The position numbers and the translations under genes are program-made. Positions 2,663-15,785 of a stretch of DNA of 15,808 nt are shown here, piece by piece. Every line of letters begins with the position of its first letter. Position 1 is the first letter of the stretch. The notes under the pieces are model-generated. The model was not told where the DNA came from, ran no database searches, and saw only the letters and a program-made list of their open reading frames with translations. Where the stretch lies: the IMG/VR virus record IMGVR_UViG_2706794698_000009; one strand, written 5' to 3'. This DNA is from a virus. Taxonomy: Duplodnaviria; Heunggongvirae; Uroviricota; Caudoviricetes.

Positions 2663-3445
2663 TTTGAATTTCTCAACAAGCAGATCACGAAATTCGTTAG
2701 CCATATCTTCCTGCACCGCTTCCAGCTGAATAATGCGCAGAACCAGTACAGGACGATCGCCAGTGATAATGCTGAGGCGTAATTTAAACGGACGTTCTTT
2801 CAGACCTTCAAACGGAACGCATTTAAATTCAAATGCCACTGGCATAATGTCTTTGGTCTTCGCTTCGACAGATTCCATCAGGGAGCGTTTGCCGCTGAAG
2901 TCATTATCTTCAAAATCAGCGGTCTGGTTTGCTTCAATCGTGATTTTACGGATTGCCGCAGCCGCTTTTGTTGCCTGAATGGCGTCACCATTAGCATCAA
3001 AGCCCACAAGGTAATCGGCCCAGTCTTCAATCCATTCTGCCAGTGACTTCTGGGAGTTACGCTCGCCGTTAACAGACAACAGTGCAGAGAACGGTGCTGT
3101 CTTTTTCAGTTTGAGAGTGGCGGTGTTATCTGCGTGACCTGGTTCATTAATAGTACCCAGGTTAAGCACACTGACGGCACGCATATTATCATCATCGATA
3201 AAGCAGCGGGTGCCTTCATCTGCAAGATCTTTAGAATAACGGGTAAAATCATCGATGCTGGCAGTGGAAAGCGCACCACGGAAACGGAAGCGATTTAAAT
3301 TAAATTTTTCCAGATCATGAATGCGGAAATTCTCAGGCAATGCTACAGCATCGGCACCAATCTTACTGATAATTTCATTAACACCCTGAGCAGAAATAAG
3401 GGCATGGATTTGATTAATTGCAGTTGCGTCTAAGCTCTGAGACAT
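2663..3445 (-). CDS. yfdQ: YfdQ-like DUF2303 prophage protein (C-terminus masked)
   Basis: The ATG at 3445 has GAGGA 6 nt upstream. 261 aa are visible and the frame runs into the N block at 2662. The ORF-track 390-aa product is an artefact of translating N as X across two genes. Confidence 0.6.
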
Positions 3446-3510
3446 AATAAGTCCTCACTATATTAAGATATTCAGTGATGAGATAAATAATCAGTTAATT
3501 AAGAACGATA

Positions 3511-3873
3511 TTAATGACCTGCTGCGCGGAGTTTTCCGTCAGGATCACCGGCAAGAGTCAGTAATTGTCCCTGGTCTTCCTGCAGAATAGTCAGGCGACC
3601 ACCGCGATTGACATACATCGGCGTTTCGGTGGTGTCTTCTTCGGAAATTTTCCCGCGGTTAGTCGGGCGAACATATGAGAGTTTGTGTTTGATTTTCACA
3701 CGGTTCTCATCAAACGGTTCGATTTCCAGGTTGAGCGAGACCTTACCTTTGGTTTTCGTGTTCATCACACCGGAAGCGACTTCACTGAGAACTGCGCCGA
3801 TTTTGGTTTCAAATACGCCGCCGTCCAGCTCCCCAATAAATGCCTGCACATCAGTACTGCGTTCGCTAGCCAT
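3511..3873 (-). CDS. Small early-left prophage protein of unknown function (YfdP-like position)
   Basis: 120 aa if started at the ATG giving MASERSTDV..., which has GAGGAG 7 nt upstream. Two further in-frame ATGs at 3891 and 3888 would give 126 aa. Protein-like composition; no motif recognised. Confidence 0.6.
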   Translation of the reverse strand: MASERSTDVQAFIGELDGGVFETKIGAVLSEVASGVMNTKTKGKVSLNLEIEPFDENRVKIKHKLSYVRPTNRGKISEEDTTETPMYVNRGGRLTILQEDQGQLLTLAGDPDGKLRAAGH

Positions 3874-4480
3874 TTTGCTGCTCCTCATCATATCGACCCT
3901 GCAAGGTCGGTTGGTTTCTCCACAAAACAGAGAAGAACACCTGCGGTGGCAGCCGCCCGGATGGATTGGGTTATGAGCCCNNNNNNNNNNNNNNNNNNNN
4001 NNNNNNNNNNNNNNNNNNNNNNNNNNNNNNNNNNNNNNNNNNNNNNNNNNNNNNNNNNNNNNNNNNNNNNNNNNNNNNNNNNNNNNNNNNNNNNNNNNNN
4101 NNNNNNNNNNNNNNNNNNNNNNNNNNNNNNNNNNNNNNNNNNNNNNNNNNNNNNNNNNNNNNNNNNNNNNNNNNNNNNNNNNNNNNNNNNNNNNNNNNNN
4201 NNNNNNNNNNNNNNNNNNNNNNNNNNNNNNNNNNNNNNNNNTCCATAAATGCCCTCATCGTTGCACCCTGGTCTCTTCCCAGGCGTCAAACCGAATCGCC
4301 ACGCTGGTTAGGCGTCTTATCAGCATCATCATTGACTTGCACATTCCGGCTACCTGGTTTGTTTGCCCGAGCAAGGAGTGGATTGTCCCCTTTAACGTCC
4401 CCAGACCGCTAACGACGCATGTGCCATACGCCGTGTTACAACCAAATTTTGTTAGTACCTTGTTTGTTTGTCTGGAAAGA

Positions 4481-4533
4481 AAGATAAAATGAAGTTGCGC
4501 ATTATGCAAGTGTTTTTGTTGCGAGATATGCAA
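4481..4533 (-). promoter_or_regulatory. Leftward early promoter region with two candidate repressor operators (OL/PL-like)
   Basis: Two 15-bp dyads of the form TTGC-N7-GCAA: TTGCGCATTATGCAA (4495-4509) and TTGCGAGATATGCAA (4519-4533). On the minus strand a TTGCAT -35 lies inside the first dyad, with a weak TATCTT 17 bp downstream. Confidence 0.4.
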
Positions 4534-4544
4534 TTTAAAGGGTA

Positions 4545-4568
4545 ATGAAAAGCCACCTTTGGGTGGCT
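4545..4568 (-). terminator. Intrinsic terminator downstream of the repressor gene
   Basis: A 7-bp GC-rich stem, AGCCACC (4551-4557) and GGTGGCT (4562-4568), with loop TTTG. On the minus strand it is followed by TTTTCATT. It lies about 20 nt past the repressor stop. Confidence 0.5.
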
Positions 4569-4588
4569 AATTGATGAGGAGGTAAGGG

Positions 4589-5281
4589 TTAATTGTGTCG
4601 CTTAAGGGTTTGTGACTGGCTGATTAAGACCTTTCCAAAGACCATAAACCGGTGTTCATTTTCGCTGGTAATTCCCCATTCACGGTAAATCTGGTTATCA
4701 GAAATCACCAGTAGTTTGTCAGGTATCATTTGCAGTCGTTTGACATAAATTTTATCATCAAAACCAAATACATAGATACCATCTCCATCAAACTGATTGA
4801 TACTGACATCAACGAAGATGAGATCTCCTGGCTCAATGGTTGGACACATACTGTCCCCACGAACGTTGATAACTTTAATGTGATTGGCTGGCCGTCCGCC
4901 AAACATCGATACAGCATTATCAGTTCTGTATTCAATGGCATGAATCACATCAATGACATCACCGCCCTGGATAAGGCCATTTCCCGCACTGGCACTGACA
5001 TCCAGCATTTCAATACGGAATACATCCTTCACCTGCGCAACATCCTCACTAATACTGTTTTTACATACAGTATTACTTTTGACGTCTGAGGTAAAGAGAT
5101 CAGCAATATCAACACCTAAGCTCCTGGCAATATTACTCAGGGCTTGTTCAGTGAATTGTTTCTGCTTACCTGTTTCCAGGCGTGAGATATTCGCCGCATC
5201 CACTCCTATTGCTTCAGCGAGATCGGCGATTTTCATGTTCTTCGCCTGGCGAAGTTGTCTGACTCGGTTTCCTATGTTCAT
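4589..5281 (-). CDS. cI-like prophage repressor (N-terminal XRE-type HTH, C-terminal S24 LexA-like autopeptidase)
   Basis: 230 aa. The N-terminus (IADLAEAIGVDAANISRLETGK) is HTH-like. The C-terminus carries a candidate Ala-Gly cleavage site (SASAGNG), the Ser motif GDSM and the Lys motif VKRL. The gene is divergent from the cro-like gene. Confidence 0.85.
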   Translation of the reverse strand: MNIGNRVRQLRQAKNMKIADLAEAIGVDAANISRLETGKQKQFTEQALSNIARSLGVDIADLFTSDVKSNTVCKNSISEDVAQVKDVFRIEMLDVSASAGNGLIQGGDVIDVIHAIEYRTDNAVSMFGGRPANHIKVINVRGDSMCPTIEPGDLIFVDVSINQFDGDGIYVFGFDDKIYVKRLQMIPDKLLVISDNQIYREWGITSENEHRFMVFGKVLISQSQTLKRHN

Positions 5282-5287
5282 GCGTTT

Positions 5288-5364
5288 ATTACATTTCTTT
5301 ATTGCGCGTTAAGCAAATCAACTTGCGCAAAATATTTGCGTGAAATAATATGCTCATCACGCAA
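5288..5364. promoter_or_regulatory. Divergent PRM/PR-like switch region with operator dyads
   Basis: A third TTGC-N7-GCAA dyad, TTGCGCGTTAAGCAA, sits at 5302-5316. The palindrome TTGCGCAA is at 5323-5330, and TTGCGTGA-N13-TCACGCAA at 5336-5364. Rightward promoter: -35 TTGCGC (5323-5328), 17-bp spacer, -10 TAATAT (5346-5351). Leftward promoter: -35 TTGCTT (complement of 5311-5316), 17-bp spacer, -10 TGTAAT (complement of 5288-5293), which would give a near-leaderless repressor mRNA. Confidence 0.5.
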
Positions 5365-5378
5365 TATGTGGAGGTCAT

Positions 5379-5639
5379 ATGCAATCACCATTACGGAATG
5401 TGCGTAAGGCGCACGGATTTACTTTGCAGCATGTTGCTGCTGGCGTTCAGGTCAATCCAGCGACGCTGAGTCGTATTGAAAGACTGGAACAAATTCCATC
5501 TATCGATCTTGCAGAACGTCTGGCCAATTTTTTTAAGGGTGAAATCAGCGAAATGCAGATTCTTTATCCGGCACGTTTTCAATCTAGCCAAAACCAGAAT
5601 GGGTTTAAACCACAGGAACAGGAGGTAAGCCGTGGGTAA
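5379..5639 (+). CDS. Cro-like XRE-family HTH regulator
   Basis: 86 aa with HTH segment FTLQHVAAGVQVNPATLSRIERLEQIPSID. GGAGG at 5370-5374 precedes the ATG. It is the first gene of the rightward operon, opposite the repressor. Confidence 0.7.
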   Translation: MQSPLRNVRKAHGFTLQHVAAGVQVNPATLSRIERLEQIPSIDLAERLANFFKGEISEMQILYPARFQSSQNQNGFKPQEQEVSRG

Positions 5640-6183
5640 TCATCACTGGAAAGTGGAAAAACAGCCTGAGTGGTACGTGAAAGCTGTCAGAAAAACTATC
5701 GCAGCGTTGCCGGGTGGTTACGCTGAAGCAGCTGACTGGCTGGATGTAACAGAAAACGCATTATTTAACCGCCTTCGTGCCGATGGCGATCAGATTTTCC
5801 CGCTGGGATGGGCAATGATTTTGCAACGTGCTGGTGGAACTCACTTCATTGCTGACGCTGTGGCGCAGTCTGCAAATGGCGTCTTTGTGTCTCTTCCTGA
5901 CGTCGAGGATGTGGACAACGCCGATATTAACCAGCGCCTGCTGGAAGTCATTGAACAGATTGGCAGTTATTCCAGACAGATTCGTTCGGCAATCGAAGAC
6001 GGTGTGGTGGAACCGCATGAGAAGACAGCAATTAACGACGAGCTGTATCTCTCAATTTCGAAGCTGCAGGAGCATGCAGCACTGGTCTACAAAATCTTTT
6101 GCATTTCAGAAAGTAATGACGCCCGCGAGTGTGCAGCTCCGGGCGCCGTGGCGTGTCGTGACTGTGGAGAAACTAACGCATGA
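5632..6183 (+). CDS. Early regulatory protein in the cII position (possibly 186-CII/CP76-like or YdaT-like); function uncertain
   Basis: 183 aa. The GTG start at 5632 has GGAGG at 5620-5624 and overlaps the cro-like stop. The family assignment is from memory and weak. Confidence 0.45.
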
Positions 6184-8308: not shown

Positions 8309-8622
8309 NNNNNNNNNNNNNNNNNNNNNNNNNNNNNNNNNNNNNNNNNNNNNNNNNNNNNNNNNNNNNNNNNNNNNNNNNNNNNNNNNNNNNNNNNNNN
8401 NNNNNNNNNNNNNNNNNNNNNNNNNNNNNNNNNNNNNNNNNNNNNNNNNNNNNNNNNNNNNNNNNNNNNNNNNNNNNNNNNNNNNNNNNNNNNNNNNNNN
8501 NNNNNNNNNNNNNNNNNNNNNNNNNNNNNNNNNNNNNNNNNNNNNNNNNNNNNNNNNNNNNNTGAGGCGTTTCTGGCGCAGGTTCGCCAGCAGGCGGAAA
8601 AACTGGTCAGGGAGATGGCGGC

Positions 8623-12555: not shown

Positions 12556-12855
12556 AAAAATTCCTTAATACTGATAACTGGGCGCACTATACACACGTTC
12601 CTGAAGAAAGCTATAGTTTTTTGATGGGGTTGAAGATGGCTGGATGTCTAAAATAAACATTGCTTCATATGTTCAACTATGCGTTAATGATTGCGTCGGT
12701 TTGAAGAACAGACGATATACGAAGTAGTTTACTAAAGCAGTTCTCATTTCAGGTGTTATTCACTTATTCCTTCTTTGAGTCTCTCCAATTAAGTACGAAG
12801 TCGTTTCTGTTATACAAGCCATTTATGCCGAAAGGCTCAAGTTAAGGAATGTAGA

Positions 12856-13071
12856 ATGTCAAATAAAATGACTGGTTTAGTAAAATGGTTTAACGCTGAT
12901 AAAGGTTTTGGCTTTATTTCTCCTGTTGATGGTAGTAAAGATGTGTTTGTGCATTTTTCTGCGATTCAGAATGATAATTTTCGAACCTTATTTGAAGGTC
13001 AAAAGGTTACCTTCTCTGTAGAGAGTGGTGCTAAAGGTCCTGCAGCAGCAAATGTCATAATTACTGATTAA
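12856..13071 (+). CDS. cspB: Cold-shock protein CspB
   Basis: 71 aa: [71 protein letters not shown], near-identical to remembered CspB. It has a long upstream leader typical of cold-shock genes. Confidence 0.9.
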
Positions 13072-13755
13072 AATTCATAGTTTGTCTGTATACGATAACG
13101 AAGAAGGCTGATGCCTGAGTGGAGATACAGACAGAGTGGTGAATATTGGATCTCTTTAATAAATAGTAAGGAGGTCCAATACATGAAACAATGGCCAGCA
13201 TATTTGGCAATAACTTAATCAGGAAAAGTATGCTAACCATTGTGGTGAAGTGCAGGTTTGCTGCATGAATAGTTTTACAGCAGAAGCTAACTGCTGGCAT
13301 AGCAAAACAAAGTGCGTAAGTGGATGACNNNNNNNNNNNNNNNNNNNNNNNNNNNNNNNNNNNNNNNNNNNNNNNNNNNNNNNNNNNNNNNNNNNNNNNN
13401 NNNNNNNNNNNNNNNNNNNNNNNNNNNNNNNNNNNNNNNNNNNNNNNNNNNNNNNNNNNNNNNNNNNNNNNNNNNNNNNNNNNNNNNNNNNNNNNNNNNN
13501 NNNNNNNNNNTGATTTTGAGTCTTTACGTTCTGACATAGGCTTTTCCTGTATAAATGGCCGTATACAGTACACTAAATATGAAAACATATCTCGTATTAT
13601 TATTTAATACATGATTTTCTTTTAAAATAATTACCCACATTTTTAATGTGTCTGTTTTTTAGCGCCGTTGAGAACAATGTTTGCTATAAAAACTAACCCA
13701 TAGACTCCGATCTTTTCAAACATATTGCACCATCTGTGTACATCGGGGCGAGGAT

Positions 13756-13916: not shown

Positions 13917-14165
13917 NNNNNNNNNNNNNNNNNNNNNNNNNNNNNNNNNNNNNNNNNNNNNNNNNNNNNNNNNNNNNNNNNNNNNNNNNNNNNNNNNNNN
14001 NNNNNNNNNNNNNNNNNNNNNNNNNNNNNNNNNNNNNNNNNNNNNNNNNNNNNNNNNNNNNNNNNNNNNNNNNNNNNNNNNNNNNNNNNNNNNNNNNNNN
14101 NNNNNNNNNNNNNNNNNNNNNNNNNNNNNNNNNNNNNNNNNNNNNNNNNNNNNNNNNNNNNGAAT

Positions 14166-14357: not shown

Positions 14358-14763
14358 NNNNNNNNNNNNNNNNNNNNNNNNNNNNNNNNNNNNNNNNNNN
14401 NNNNNNNNNNNNNNNNNNNNNNNNNNNNNNNNNNNNNNNNNNNNNNNNNNNNNNNNNNNNNNNNNNNNNNNNNNNNNNNNNNNNNNNNNNNNNNNNNNNN
14501 NNNNNNNNNNNNNNNNNNNNNNNNNNNNNNNNNNNNNNNNNNNNNNNNNNNNNNNNNNNNNNNNNNNNNNNNNNNNNNNNNNNNNNNNNNNNNNNNNNNN
14601 NNNNNNNTTAAATCAGCAAAAGTTTGTTTTGGTAGATTTGTGTAATCCATAGTCACCTCTGTGTTTATCAGATTGACATCCTCCTCCCGCCAGTGCCCAT
14701 CACTGGTGAGGTAAGATTTAACATATCCGGGGATTTGAAGCCGATAAATCCTGATAAATATCC

Positions 14764-15785
<1,022 letters not shown>

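Follow-up and report, generated by a model that had tools for sequence, protein, structure and literature searches.

The closest described relatives of the switch analysed here are those of the phages mEp460, PhiR63_1, SfII, Stx2a_1447/WGPS2 and phi1720a-02, in whose records no operators are annotated. Literature searches on mEp460, SfII and ST64B returned nothing on operators, the exact operator strings given below occurred in 0 papers, and no paper was found that defines the operator set of this immunity module, with Yin 2015 and Koudelka 2018 dealing with other immunity types. A 2025 preprint (bioRxiv 10.1101/2025.01.01.630987) places an AlphaFold3-predicted 20-bp Cro site of phi1720a-02 20–39 nt upstream of cI, predicts that Arg32 of this Cro contacts operator guanines, and reports that deletion of cro abolishes phi1720a-02 replication. 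Compared with the map presented here, the operator sites in the preprint are limited to models of Cro, at a single position in the control region of phi1720a-02 and another in phiNP, and it does not include OL1, OL2, OR1, OR2, a consensus or clade-wide conservation; its modelled Cro site contains the dyad that we term OR3.

Relatives and proteins of the immunity module

We analysed a 15,808-nt stretch of DNA from a virus of the Caudoviricetes (IMG/VR record IMGVR_UViG_2706794698_000009; the whole stretch is hereafter the window), whose 1458-bp cI-cro module is 97.9% identical to that of mEp460, 96.3% to that of 1720a-02, and 91.1% to that of SfII. The region is 96–99% identical to PhiR63_1, mEp460 and phi1720a-02, the control regions of phi1720a-02 and the window differ at two bases, and the window’s cI and Cro are 99.6% and 100% identical, respectively, to those of mEp460. 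The phages of this kind listed at the outset share the whole module at 91–99% DNA identity and carry the same dyads, differing in slightly altered dyad centres and in an OL spacing of 22 to 24 bp. By sequence, the near-identity of cI, cro and the control region assigns this switch to the mEp460/SfII/phi1720a-02 immunity type. Among 5426 complete E. coli genomes, 1040 carry the module (~19%, about 1 in 5), some with two or three copies. ST131 and O157:H7 strains are among its carriers, as are several Stx2a phages, and it has relatives in Salmonella, Klebsiella, Citrobacter and beyond. The genes at the center of the module are as follows:

4589-5281, minus strand: 230-aa cI-type repressor; HTH at the N-terminus (Pfam HTH_3/HTH_26), S24 self-cleaving domain at the C-terminus (Peptidase_S24, E = 6e-19)
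5379-5639, plus strand: cro, 86 aa, HTH_3 (Pfam)
5632-6183: CP76-type CII-like protein gene, immediately downstream of cro

This domain content bears out the gene context that the initial annotation had assumed, with a Cro/C1-type HTH plus Peptidase_S24 repressor divergent from an HTH_3 cro. In cI, the putative Ala-Gly cleavage site (A99, G100) and the Ser/Lys dyad (S144, K181) are invariant in the alignment, and residues 1–15 are conserved, so that we place the cI start at M1, not at M16 as annotated in mEp460 and 1720a-02. The recognition-helix segment of cI is AANISRLETGKQK, and that of Cro, PATLSRIER, follows the (N/T)(L/I)SR(I/L)E pattern common to cI. Since BLASTP could not align Cro with the N-terminal domain of cI, the argument for a shared recognition helix rests on this short motif. 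The Cro of phi1720a-02 is 95% identical to that of the window, with Arg32 supplying the R of LSRIE in its helix. In a sequence search of solved structures, the nearest entries (ClgR, a designed 434 variant, UmuD) reached at best E = 1e-4, which leaves the DNA contacts without a structural template.

Dyads and proposed promoters flanking the repressor gene

The initial annotation had described three 15-bp dyads of one architecture, TTGC-N7-GCAA, with related elements beside the third (TTGCGCAA at 5323-5330, and TTGCGTGA-N13-TCACGCAA at 5336-5364), and all of these sequences were found at their coordinates, exact to the base. The features of the control regions, with scores from the weight matrix introduced below, are as follows:

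4481-4486, minus strand: proposed PL -10, TATCTT, 17 bp downstream of the TTGCAT -35; predicted start near 4474
4495-4509: OL1, promoter-proximal left dyad TTGCGCATTATGCAA, exact match, top matrix score of 20.6; a dyad occupies the equivalent position in most homologous loci
4509 to 4504, minus strand: proposed PL -35, TTGCAT, read from the sequence as the right half of OL1
4519-4533: OL2, second left dyad TTGCGAGATATGCAA, exact match, score 18.9, 24 bp centre-to-centre from OL1
4551-4568, minus strand: predicted intrinsic terminator of the cI transcript (terminator scan), between the cI stop codon and OL2
5288-5293, minus strand: proposed PRM -10, TGTAAT, exactly 6 nt before the cI ATG
5302-5316: OR3, cI-proximal dyad TTGCGCGTTAAGCAA, exact match, score 15.2, conserved across lineages
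5316 to 5311, minus strand: proposed PRM -35, TTGCTT, right half of OR3, 17 bp from TGTAAT
5323-5337: OR2, a half-operator whose invariant 8-bp palindrome TTGCGCAA lies at 5323-5330; its TTGCGC doubles as the proposed PR -35
5336-5340, plus strand: extra TTGCG half-site, left arm of a 29-bp dyad, confined to the window/SfII/Citrobacter sub-lineage
5346-5351, plus strand: proposed PR -10, TAATAT, 17 bp after TTGCGC; predicted start near 5358
5350-5364: OR1, cro-proximal dyad ATGCTCATCACGCAA (ATGC-N6-CGCAA), one-mismatch match, score 13.4
5400-5414: candidate fourth operator in cro codons 8–12, degenerate here as GTGCGTAAGGCGCAC, sixth-best matrix match, score 7.0

Statistically, three exact copies of TTGC-N7-GCAA occur in the 15.8-kb window against 0.59 expected (pattern count), a number reached in 1 of 200 shuffled windows. 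All three lie in the two short intergenic stretches on either side of the repressor gene, where 0.008 exact dyads are expected (Poisson P(≥3) ~8e-8). With a weight matrix trained solely on other lineages, the four best 15-mers of the window start at 4495 (20.6), 4519 (18.9), 5302 (15.2) and 5350 (13.4); since the training sites were themselves picked by pattern, this ranking is a confirmation and not an independent discovery. The consensus of the 15-bp site is tTGCg-N5-cGCAa, with the centres of the half-sites 11 bp apart.

Evolutionarily, 25 distinct sequences that align without gaps, from many Enterobacterales hosts ranging from Escherichia to Proteus and Serratia and with cI identities of 39–97%, show that dyad arms and positions are kept while centres and flanks vary, the information content of the footprint being near 2 bits in the arms and 0.4–1 bit in the centres. 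A further 64 distinct viral contigs, chosen by OR3 and OR2 alone, likewise keep the dyad arms and positions while centres and flanks vary, and in them conservation extends to OR1 and the -10 elements. Across loci the motif tracks the N-terminal DNA-binding domain of the repressor: TTGC-N7-GCAA was not found beside five cI-type repressors with other HTH domains (ST160 c2, HK639, PhiR5_1, PSTCR7lys and e14 YmfK).

On the right, cI and cro diverge from a 97-bp control region. The related dyads OR3, the OR2 core and OR1 each keep a fixed place there and share bases with the -35 and -10 hexamers, likewise conserved, of both inferred divergent promoters. No block of the alignment is more strongly conserved than the OR2 palindrome, to the right of which there is no conservation, and the second half-site expected at 5334-5337 (ATTT) is not conserved; because OR2 has just one conserved half-site, occupancy of a third site at OR has to be assumed. 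OR1 would extend over the predicted PR start site and the last two bases of the -10, the AT with which OR1 begins; the -10 itself follows a TAa.AT pattern conserved at a fixed position. The OR1 arms ATGC-N6-CGCAA are invariant around a variable centre in all lineages, including the 64 viral sequences, which were not chosen on OR1.

These comparisons change how the right half of OR had been parsed earlier. A 29-bp dyad was proposed there; with its 8-bp arms it is real in the window, but it is lineage-specific and the unit conserved beyond close relatives is the 15-mer of OR1; its left arm, TTGCG at 5336-5340, is present in the window, mEp460, SfII and Citrobacter loci and absent in Klebsiella, Flotzy and more distant lineages, for which reason we rejected the 29-bp dyad as the functional unit and, on the same ground, an inverted OR2 of the form CGCAA-N5-TTGCG at 5326-5340. 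In addition, OR2 proved to be just a half-operator, and a probable fourth site in cro had been overlooked.

This candidate operator in cro codons 8–12 is a probable site of putative function, degenerate in the window. In other lineages it reads TTGCG-N5-CGCA(A/T/C), Leu8 of cro is encoded by TTG in 59 of 60 genes compared with 19% of the remaining Leu codons in cro, Ser11 by TCG in 50 of 50 compared with 5% of the remaining Ser codons, and the dyad is kept even where the peptide differs (LRIKQ, LRLEQ). A terminator scan flags the 5400-5414 element as a terminator-like hairpin.

As the initial annotation held, the -35 hexamers overlap the dyads: by direct reading, each -35 of PL, PR and PRM is an operator half-site, and the hexamers are conserved in position. 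Each agrees with the consensus at TTG only, and none of the three was picked up when 4243-5700 was scanned for consensus promoters (two matches were returned, which we judged spurious), so that the promoter assignments rest on conserved position. PRM escapes the scan because of a G at -11 in its -10, and PR because its -35 matches only 3/6. For PRM, the 25 and the 64 distinct sequences hardly vary in ATTACA or in its distance from CAT, and the TGTAAT-N6-ATG geometry implies a leaderless cI mRNA starting at 5281; together with the lack of a Shine-Dalgarno sequence, it supports the leaderless or near-leaderless repressor mRNA suggested earlier, which would be translated without a leader. Two alternative PRM registers were rejected, TTGATT-16-AGAAAT because its -10 is not conserved, and TAATAA because transcription would start past the ATG.

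On the left, most lineages carry paired dyads 22–24 bp apart directly after the cI terminator, and in diverged lineages a TAT..T hexamer lies at a fixed 8 bp beyond OL1. The SfII record has an annotated putative rho-independent terminator at the position matching 4551-4568. OL1 and OL2 appear to form the second operator cluster of a lambda-type switch, at a leftward early promoter from which we infer a leftward transcript.

Other candidates were examined and set aside. The 15-mer at 5280-5294 has a matrix score of 10.2, within the chance range (mean shuffle maximum 9.7), and is not kept in distant lineages. The window’s one LexA/SOS box (CTGT-N8-ACAG, intragenic in cI at 5055-5070) and its one lambda-CII box (TTGC-N6-TTGC, intragenic in cro at 5424-5437) are consistent with chance, and the same pattern search found neither box in the control regions. 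Neither the control regions nor the ~580 nt to the left of PL matched any Rfam entry, and PHROGs gave no family for the two ORFs left of PL.

Alternative readings and a model of the switch

What is established is that the sites exist and exceed chance expectation, where they lie and how well they are conserved, that they go with this HTH, and which domains the proteins contain, and we consider it very probable that the dyads are the operators of a lambda-type lysis-lysogeny switch, bound by cI and Cro. The OL/OR layout of a cI-type repressor that had been proposed for this locus is supported by gene content, by the conserved dyad positions and by the motif following the repressor N-terminal domain. 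A different regulator could in principle bind the same sites, either the CP76-type CII-like protein encoded immediately downstream or a host factor; the CGCAA-N5-TTGCG at 5326-5340 in the window’s sub-lineage, which may loosely resemble host PurR-type boxes, would speak for the latter. However, e14 encodes a CII-like protein 94% identical to that of the window beside unrelated cI and cro genes, and there TTGC-N7-GCAA is absent and the dyads are of a different family, the GTACA type. Motif and cI/Cro helix are kept together in hosts from Escherichia to Proteus and Serratia, and sites over a -10 and +1 are repressor-like, not activator-like, all of which makes binding by another factor very unlikely. 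It is extremely unlikely that the TTGC motifs are mere -35-like hexamers (TTGxxx) of PL, PR and PRM, with the dyads a by-product and the repressor bound elsewhere. Every proposed promoter does have its -35 inside a dyad, and TTGC resembles the start of TTGACA, but the partner GCAA at its fixed 7-bp spacing is conserved to the same degree as TTGC; OL2, OR1 and the site inside cro coincide with no -35; and the 97-bp control region holds no other conserved repeated element.

Each dyad could also form a stem of 4–5 bp, and the element inside cro was flagged by the scan as noted above, so that hairpins acting in termination, processing or translation control, with no protein bound, have to be weighed. 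Across cI identities of 39–97%, though, the arms are invariant and never covary, a pattern expected of sites read by a protein and not of paired RNA. The stems are also very short, with no T tract, and the five or six copies of the sequence fall either within transcripts of different orientation or ahead of the predicted starts; the real terminator is separate, at 4551-4568. For the dyads as a family we regard hairpins as exceedingly improbable; limited to the site inside cro, such a role is possible. A reading of the three exact dyads as coincidence, clustered by chance where the intergenic DNA is AT-rich, draws on the single shuffled window that matched their number, yet their location in the two intergenic regions flanking cI is itself far beyond chance, and the dyads are conserved in dozens of diverged loci, so that the comparative data effectively refute coincidence.

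Returning to operators bound by cI and Cro, we posit the following scheme, in which the protein bound at each site, the binding order, cooperativity and the exact starts are all inferred. The 230-aa cI and the 86-aa Cro would each recognise the 15-bp site tTGCg-N5-cGCAa as a dimer. In a lysogen, cI at OL1 and OL2 would block PL (TTGCAT-17-TATCTT), while cI at OR1, with the half-operator OR2, would block PR (TTGCGC-17-TAATAT) and keep cro, replication and late genes off. OR3 would cover the -35 and spacer of PRM (TTGCTT-17-TGTAAT-6-ATG), from which cI mRNA would start at or beside the A of the ATG, and because OR3 overlies PRM, its occupancy by excess cI, or by Cro after induction, would stop repressor synthesis; published support for Cro at OR3 is the predicted AlphaFold3 complex of phi1720a-02. 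On SOS induction, activated RecA would prompt cI to cleave itself between Ala99 and Gly100 through its Ser144/Lys181 dyad, freeing the operators.

So understood, this is an ordinary switch of known mechanism whose putative operator set is newly mapped, and because the mechanism is textbook, the value of the map is practical rather than conceptual. The 15-bp consensus and the site map may be used to predict which prophages are co-repressed or cross-regulated, and they allow reporter and footprint experiments to be designed, with the annotated cI start corrected as above. A more far-reaching possibility, which we find doubtful, is that the design is unlike that of lambda, with a four-site right operator (a palindromic half-operator forming the PR -35, plus the site in cro codons 8–12), and with half-site and helix nearly unchanged across an Enterobacterales prophage clade whose repressors are 55–97% identical, so that its members form one large cross-reacting network and not separate immunity groups. 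If true, this would give a simple account of why phi1720a-02 Cro, as reported, represses phiNP, and would bear on the E. coli genomes with the module (~19%).

Comparison with lambda, P22, 434 and 933W

With lambda, the locus shares divergent cI and cro genes, a repressor of HTH and S24 domains, multiple dyad operators over PR and PRM, a second operator cluster at a leftward promoter past the end of the cI transcription unit, and a PRM geometry (-10-N6-ATG, in lambda TAGATT-N6-ATG) that implies a leaderless cI mRNA. It differs in operator length (15 bp, TTGC-N7-GCAA, compared with 17 bp) and in the number of OL sites (two compared with three), and OL lies only ~780 bp from OR because there are no rex genes. 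Unlike in lambda, OR2 is an 8-bp palindromic half-operator 6 bp from the PRM -35, which it does not overlap, whereas OR3 covers that -35. Cro is of the HTH_3 type and not of the lambda Cro fold, CII is CP76-type, and no N gene is evident. The best-looking OR site is OR3, not OR1, an order opposite to that of lambda affinities if sequence symmetry predicts affinity.

Like P22 C2 and 434, the window’s regulators would be small HTH dimers on short dyads with half-sites about one helical turn apart. The P22-like C2 of phage ST160 is 43% identical to the window’s cI but differs in its N-terminal DNA-binding domain, and beside c2 there is no TTGC-N7-GCAA, the best matrix score being 4.6. A pattern search of the window found no 434-type ACAA-N6-TTGT, and the operator specificity of this switch appears, from the sequence, to be neither that of P22 C2 nor that of 434.

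The 933W-type Stx phage of EDL933 has only two OL sites (PMC4587872), and the apparent strength order of 933W-type OR sites is unlike that of lambda (PMC5977221). The sequences of repressor and operators differ between the 933W-type switch and that of the window, but the two are alike in having two OL sites only, and may also be alike in an OR order unlike that of lambda.

Immunity region and candidate operators

The repressor gene is followed on its upstream side by a divergent cro and a gene for a "CII" protein:

4589-5281, minus strand: cI-type repressor, 230 aa, Cro/C1-type HTH (residues 3-64) plus Peptidase_S24
5379-5639, plus strand: cro, divergent from cI, 86 aa, HTH_3
5632-6183: "CII", CP76-type, next gene after cro

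The stretch at 4243-5700 (1458 bases) is 98.7% identical to PhiR63_1, 97.9% to mEp460, 97.3% to phiSTEC1575-Stx2k, 96.3% to phi1720a-02 and Stx2a_1447/WGPS2, and 91.1% to Shigella phage SfII. Of 5426 complete E. coli genomes, 1040 carry the module at 80-100% identity (≤3 copies per genome), so this immunity region belongs to a lambdoid prophage type that is very common. Deposited records of the related phages carry no operator annotation.

All five elements listed by the initial annotation, which read them as OL/OR-type operators, were found exactly where it had placed them. The window (15.8 kb) contains three exact copies of TTGC-N7-GCAA (starts 4495, OL1; 4519, OL2; 5302, OR3), against a mean of 0.59 in dinucleotide-preserving shuffles of the window, 1 in 200 of which reached three. 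All three lie within the two short non-coding stretches bordering the ORF at 4589-5281(-), where 0.008 would be expected (Poisson P ~8e-8), and a one-mismatch search adds OR1 (ATGCTCATCACGCAA, 5350-5364). Symmetrising 60 distinct sites gives the consensus tTGCgtaatacGCAa, with ~2 bits per position in its arms and 0.4-1 bit at centre positions. With a weight matrix built without the window's lineage, the four top-scoring 15-mers of the window start at 4495, 4519, 5302 and 5350, a ranking that serves as a consistency check and not as independent discovery because the training sites were picked by pattern.

The middle element, OR2 (5323-5330), is an invariant 8-bp palindrome, TTGCGCAA, centred 21 bp from OR3 and 27 bp from OR1. 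Its expected second half-site (5334-5337; ATTT in the window) is not conserved, so OR2 would be at best a half-operator that needs the help of a neighbouring dimer. The promoters were assigned from conserved position:

PR: -35 TTGCGC 5323-5328; 17 bp; -10 TAATAT 5346-5351; predicted start near 5358
OR1: 5350-5364; first two bases are the last two of the PR -10; spans the predicted start near 5358
PRM, minus strand: TTGCTT 5316 to 5311 (OR3 right arm); 17 bp; TGTAAT 5293 to 5288; 6 nt; ATG
PL, minus strand: TTGCAT 4509 to 4504 (OL1 arm); 17 bp; TATCTT 4486 to 4481

OR1 has the left arm ATGC, not TTGC, because it overlaps the end of the PR -10, and diverged lineages keep a TAT..T hexamer at a constant distance of 8 bp from OL1. 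A consensus promoter scan called none of PL, PR and PRM, since every -35 matches TTG alone and a G occupies position -11 in the -10 of PRM.

Leftward, ~580 nt (window about 3892-4474; 2125-2750 in the mEp460 locus) separate the proposed PL start from a yfdP-like gene (3511-3891), the first convincing leftward gene. This stretch, partly N-masked (3981-4241), yielded no convincing ORF, PHROG family, Rfam match or N-like gene, and may be a long leader or contain an unrecognised small gene or RNA. The window has seven N-masked runs of 182-261 bases each (2403-2662, 3981-4241, 8309-8562, 13329-13510, 13917-14161, 14358-14607, 14929-15178), one of which ends 250 bases left of OL1. Far to the right, the Rfam cspA thermoregulator has a full-length match (156 bits, 12695-13134(+)) upstream of a 71-aa ORF (12856-13071), a cold-shock protein gene within the prophage late region.

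Conservation and specificity of the dyads

Homologues of cI (39-97% identical to the window's) were gathered from phage records and one genome per species, with hosts in Shigella, Citrobacter, Kluyvera, Klebsiella, Buttiauxella, Trabulsiella, Pantoea, Mixta, Dryocola, Rosenbergiella, Proteus, Serratia and Phaseolibacter. Between the cI start codon and a point past the cro start, the alignment of 25 distinct sequences needs no gap, and the sequence drifts outside these conserved blocks:

5279-5281: CAT, cI start
5288-5293: ATTACA
5302-5317: TTGCg...GCAAA
5321-5330: AcTTGCGCAA
5346-5353: TAa.ATGC
5359-5364: aCGCAA

Scanning viral contigs for the ATTACA-OR3-OR2 pattern returned at least 120 contigs and from them at least 64 further distinct sequences, in which the OR1 arms, PR -10 and Shine-Dalgarno, all three outside the search pattern, were again kept. 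Past the far end of cI, a terminator and then two dyads with centres 22-24 bp apart are found in most lineages.

The number of sites differs among lineages, some of which carry extra dyads: Pantoea alvi has three OL dyads, and Dryocola (two loci) has a fourth and fifth dyad right of OR1 and lacks the adjacent cro-like ORF. In phages Flotzy and Eeyore, the control region and cro are annotated solely as hypothetical proteins, including, on the strand of the repressor, small ORFs (32 and 41 codons); the stretch encodes an 87-aa Cro homologue (56% identical).

Five repressors with differing N-terminal sequences (ST160 C2, P22-like; HK639; PhiR5_1; PSTCR7lys; e14 YmfK) have only the C-terminal domain in common with the window's cI. 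Near them TTGC-N7-GCAA was absent and weight-matrix scores were ≤6.4, their control regions holding other repeated dyads instead. The CII-like YmfL of e14 shares 94% identity with its counterpart in the window, and the e14 repressor and cro are unrelated to the window's, with dyads of GTACA type. These dyads (GGTACA / CTTGTACC-N5-GGTACAAG; 1190-1225 and 1945-2015 of the E. coli K-12 locus) lie on both sides of ymfK, so that the layout is the same and the dyad family different, a clean case of immunity-module exchange. The dyads thus track cI and cro, not neighbouring genes or host. The cI recognition-helix segment, D-x-x-N-I/V-S-R-L/V-E-T-G-K-Q-K, is almost invariant across the clade, and the Cro helix segment, (N/T)-L-S-R-I-E-R, resembles it. 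Overall, the dyads of the initial annotation hold up and its reading of them as operators is supported, with the parse of OR corrected.

The 29-bp dyad, the cro-internal site and the repressor start

The initial annotation had also proposed a 29-bp dyad, TTGCGTGA-N13-TCACGCAA. The window, mEp460 and 1720a-02 carry it without a mismatch; in SfII and Citrobacter loci each arm is reduced to 5 bp, and the left arm is absent from Klebsiella, Flotzy and more distant lineages, so it does not hold as a conserved unit. We take it to be OR1 joined by an additional TTGCG half-site (5336-5340) that would be specific to this lineage.

Codons 8-12 of cro read TTG CGn AAr TCG CAa in most lineages. They thereby form a TTGCG-N5-CGCAA dyad whose centre is 50-52 bp away from OR1. 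Among 106 distinct cro genes, whose sequences are not phylogenetically independent, TTG encodes Leu8 in 59/60 (but 19% of the remaining Leu codons of these genes), and TCG encodes Ser11 in 50/50 (but 5% of the remaining Ser codons); Arg9 and Lys10 show free variation at their third positions. The dyad is kept where the peptide is altered, as in Proteus (LRIKQ, TTGCGAATAAAGCAA) and Serratia (LRLEQ, TTGCGTCTTGAACAA). This codon bias, together with retention across differing peptides, points to selection on DNA, strongly though, given the shared ancestry of the sequences, short of proof, and makes the intragenic dyad a probable fourth site. The window carries a degenerate version, GTGCGTAAGGCGCAC (5400-5414; weight-matrix score 7.0, sixth best in the window), which a scan flags as a terminator-like hairpin; for this element alone, a role at the RNA level is possible.

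The spacing from the PRM -10 to the ATG is constant across all lineages, and no consistent Shine-Dalgarno precedes the cI ATG in those aligned. In lambda, too, the PRM -10 lies six nucleotides before the ATG and the cI mRNA is leaderless, and by this likeness the earlier suggestion of a leaderless cI message is reasonable. In the mEp460 and 1720a-02 records (2848-3495 and 545-1192 of the respective loci) the repressor is annotated from Met16, as a 215-aa protein. Because the 15 N-terminal residues (window 5237-5281) are conserved and lie within the HTH domain, the true start is M1 at 5281; the misannotation is likely due to a true ATG without Shine-Dalgarno, consistent with a leaderless mRNA. 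A perfect CTGT-N8-ACAG (CTGTTTTTACATACAG, LexA-box-like ends) at 5055-5070, in the linker region of the cI coding sequence, may be coincidence (~0.2 chance matches expected in the window).

Relation to known switches

The dyads would serve both cI and Cro, as in a standard lambda-type switch; the inferred parts of this scheme are binding by the two proteins, its affinity order and cooperativity, and the points where transcription starts. Switches of this kind are well known, and sequenced, named phages already carry the immunity module. The new part is limited to an operator consensus and site map for a module that is very widespread, and to two modest oddities: OR2 as a half-operator and the site inside cro. 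The exact operator strings had no match in the text of the literature searched, no operator description was found in that on mEp460, SfII and ST64B, and published Stx-phage operator studies treat other immunity types.

One preprint on phi1720a-02 bears directly on this region; in it, deleting cro abolishes replication of the phage (bioRxiv 10.1101/2025.01.01.630987). AlphaFold3 modelling in that study seats a Cro dimer on a semi-palindrome of 20 bp that lies 20-39 nt ahead of the lysogenic operon, and predicts guanine contacts for Arg32. In our comparison the phi1720a-02 control region differs from the window's by two bases, the OR3 dyad falls inside the modelled 20-mer, and Arg32 is the R of LSRIE. 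In the same preprint, phi1720a-02 Cro represses a Citrobacter prophage co-resident with it, phiNP, acting on the phiNP control region 12 nt before the first lytic gene; OR1 occupies that position in the dyad family described here.
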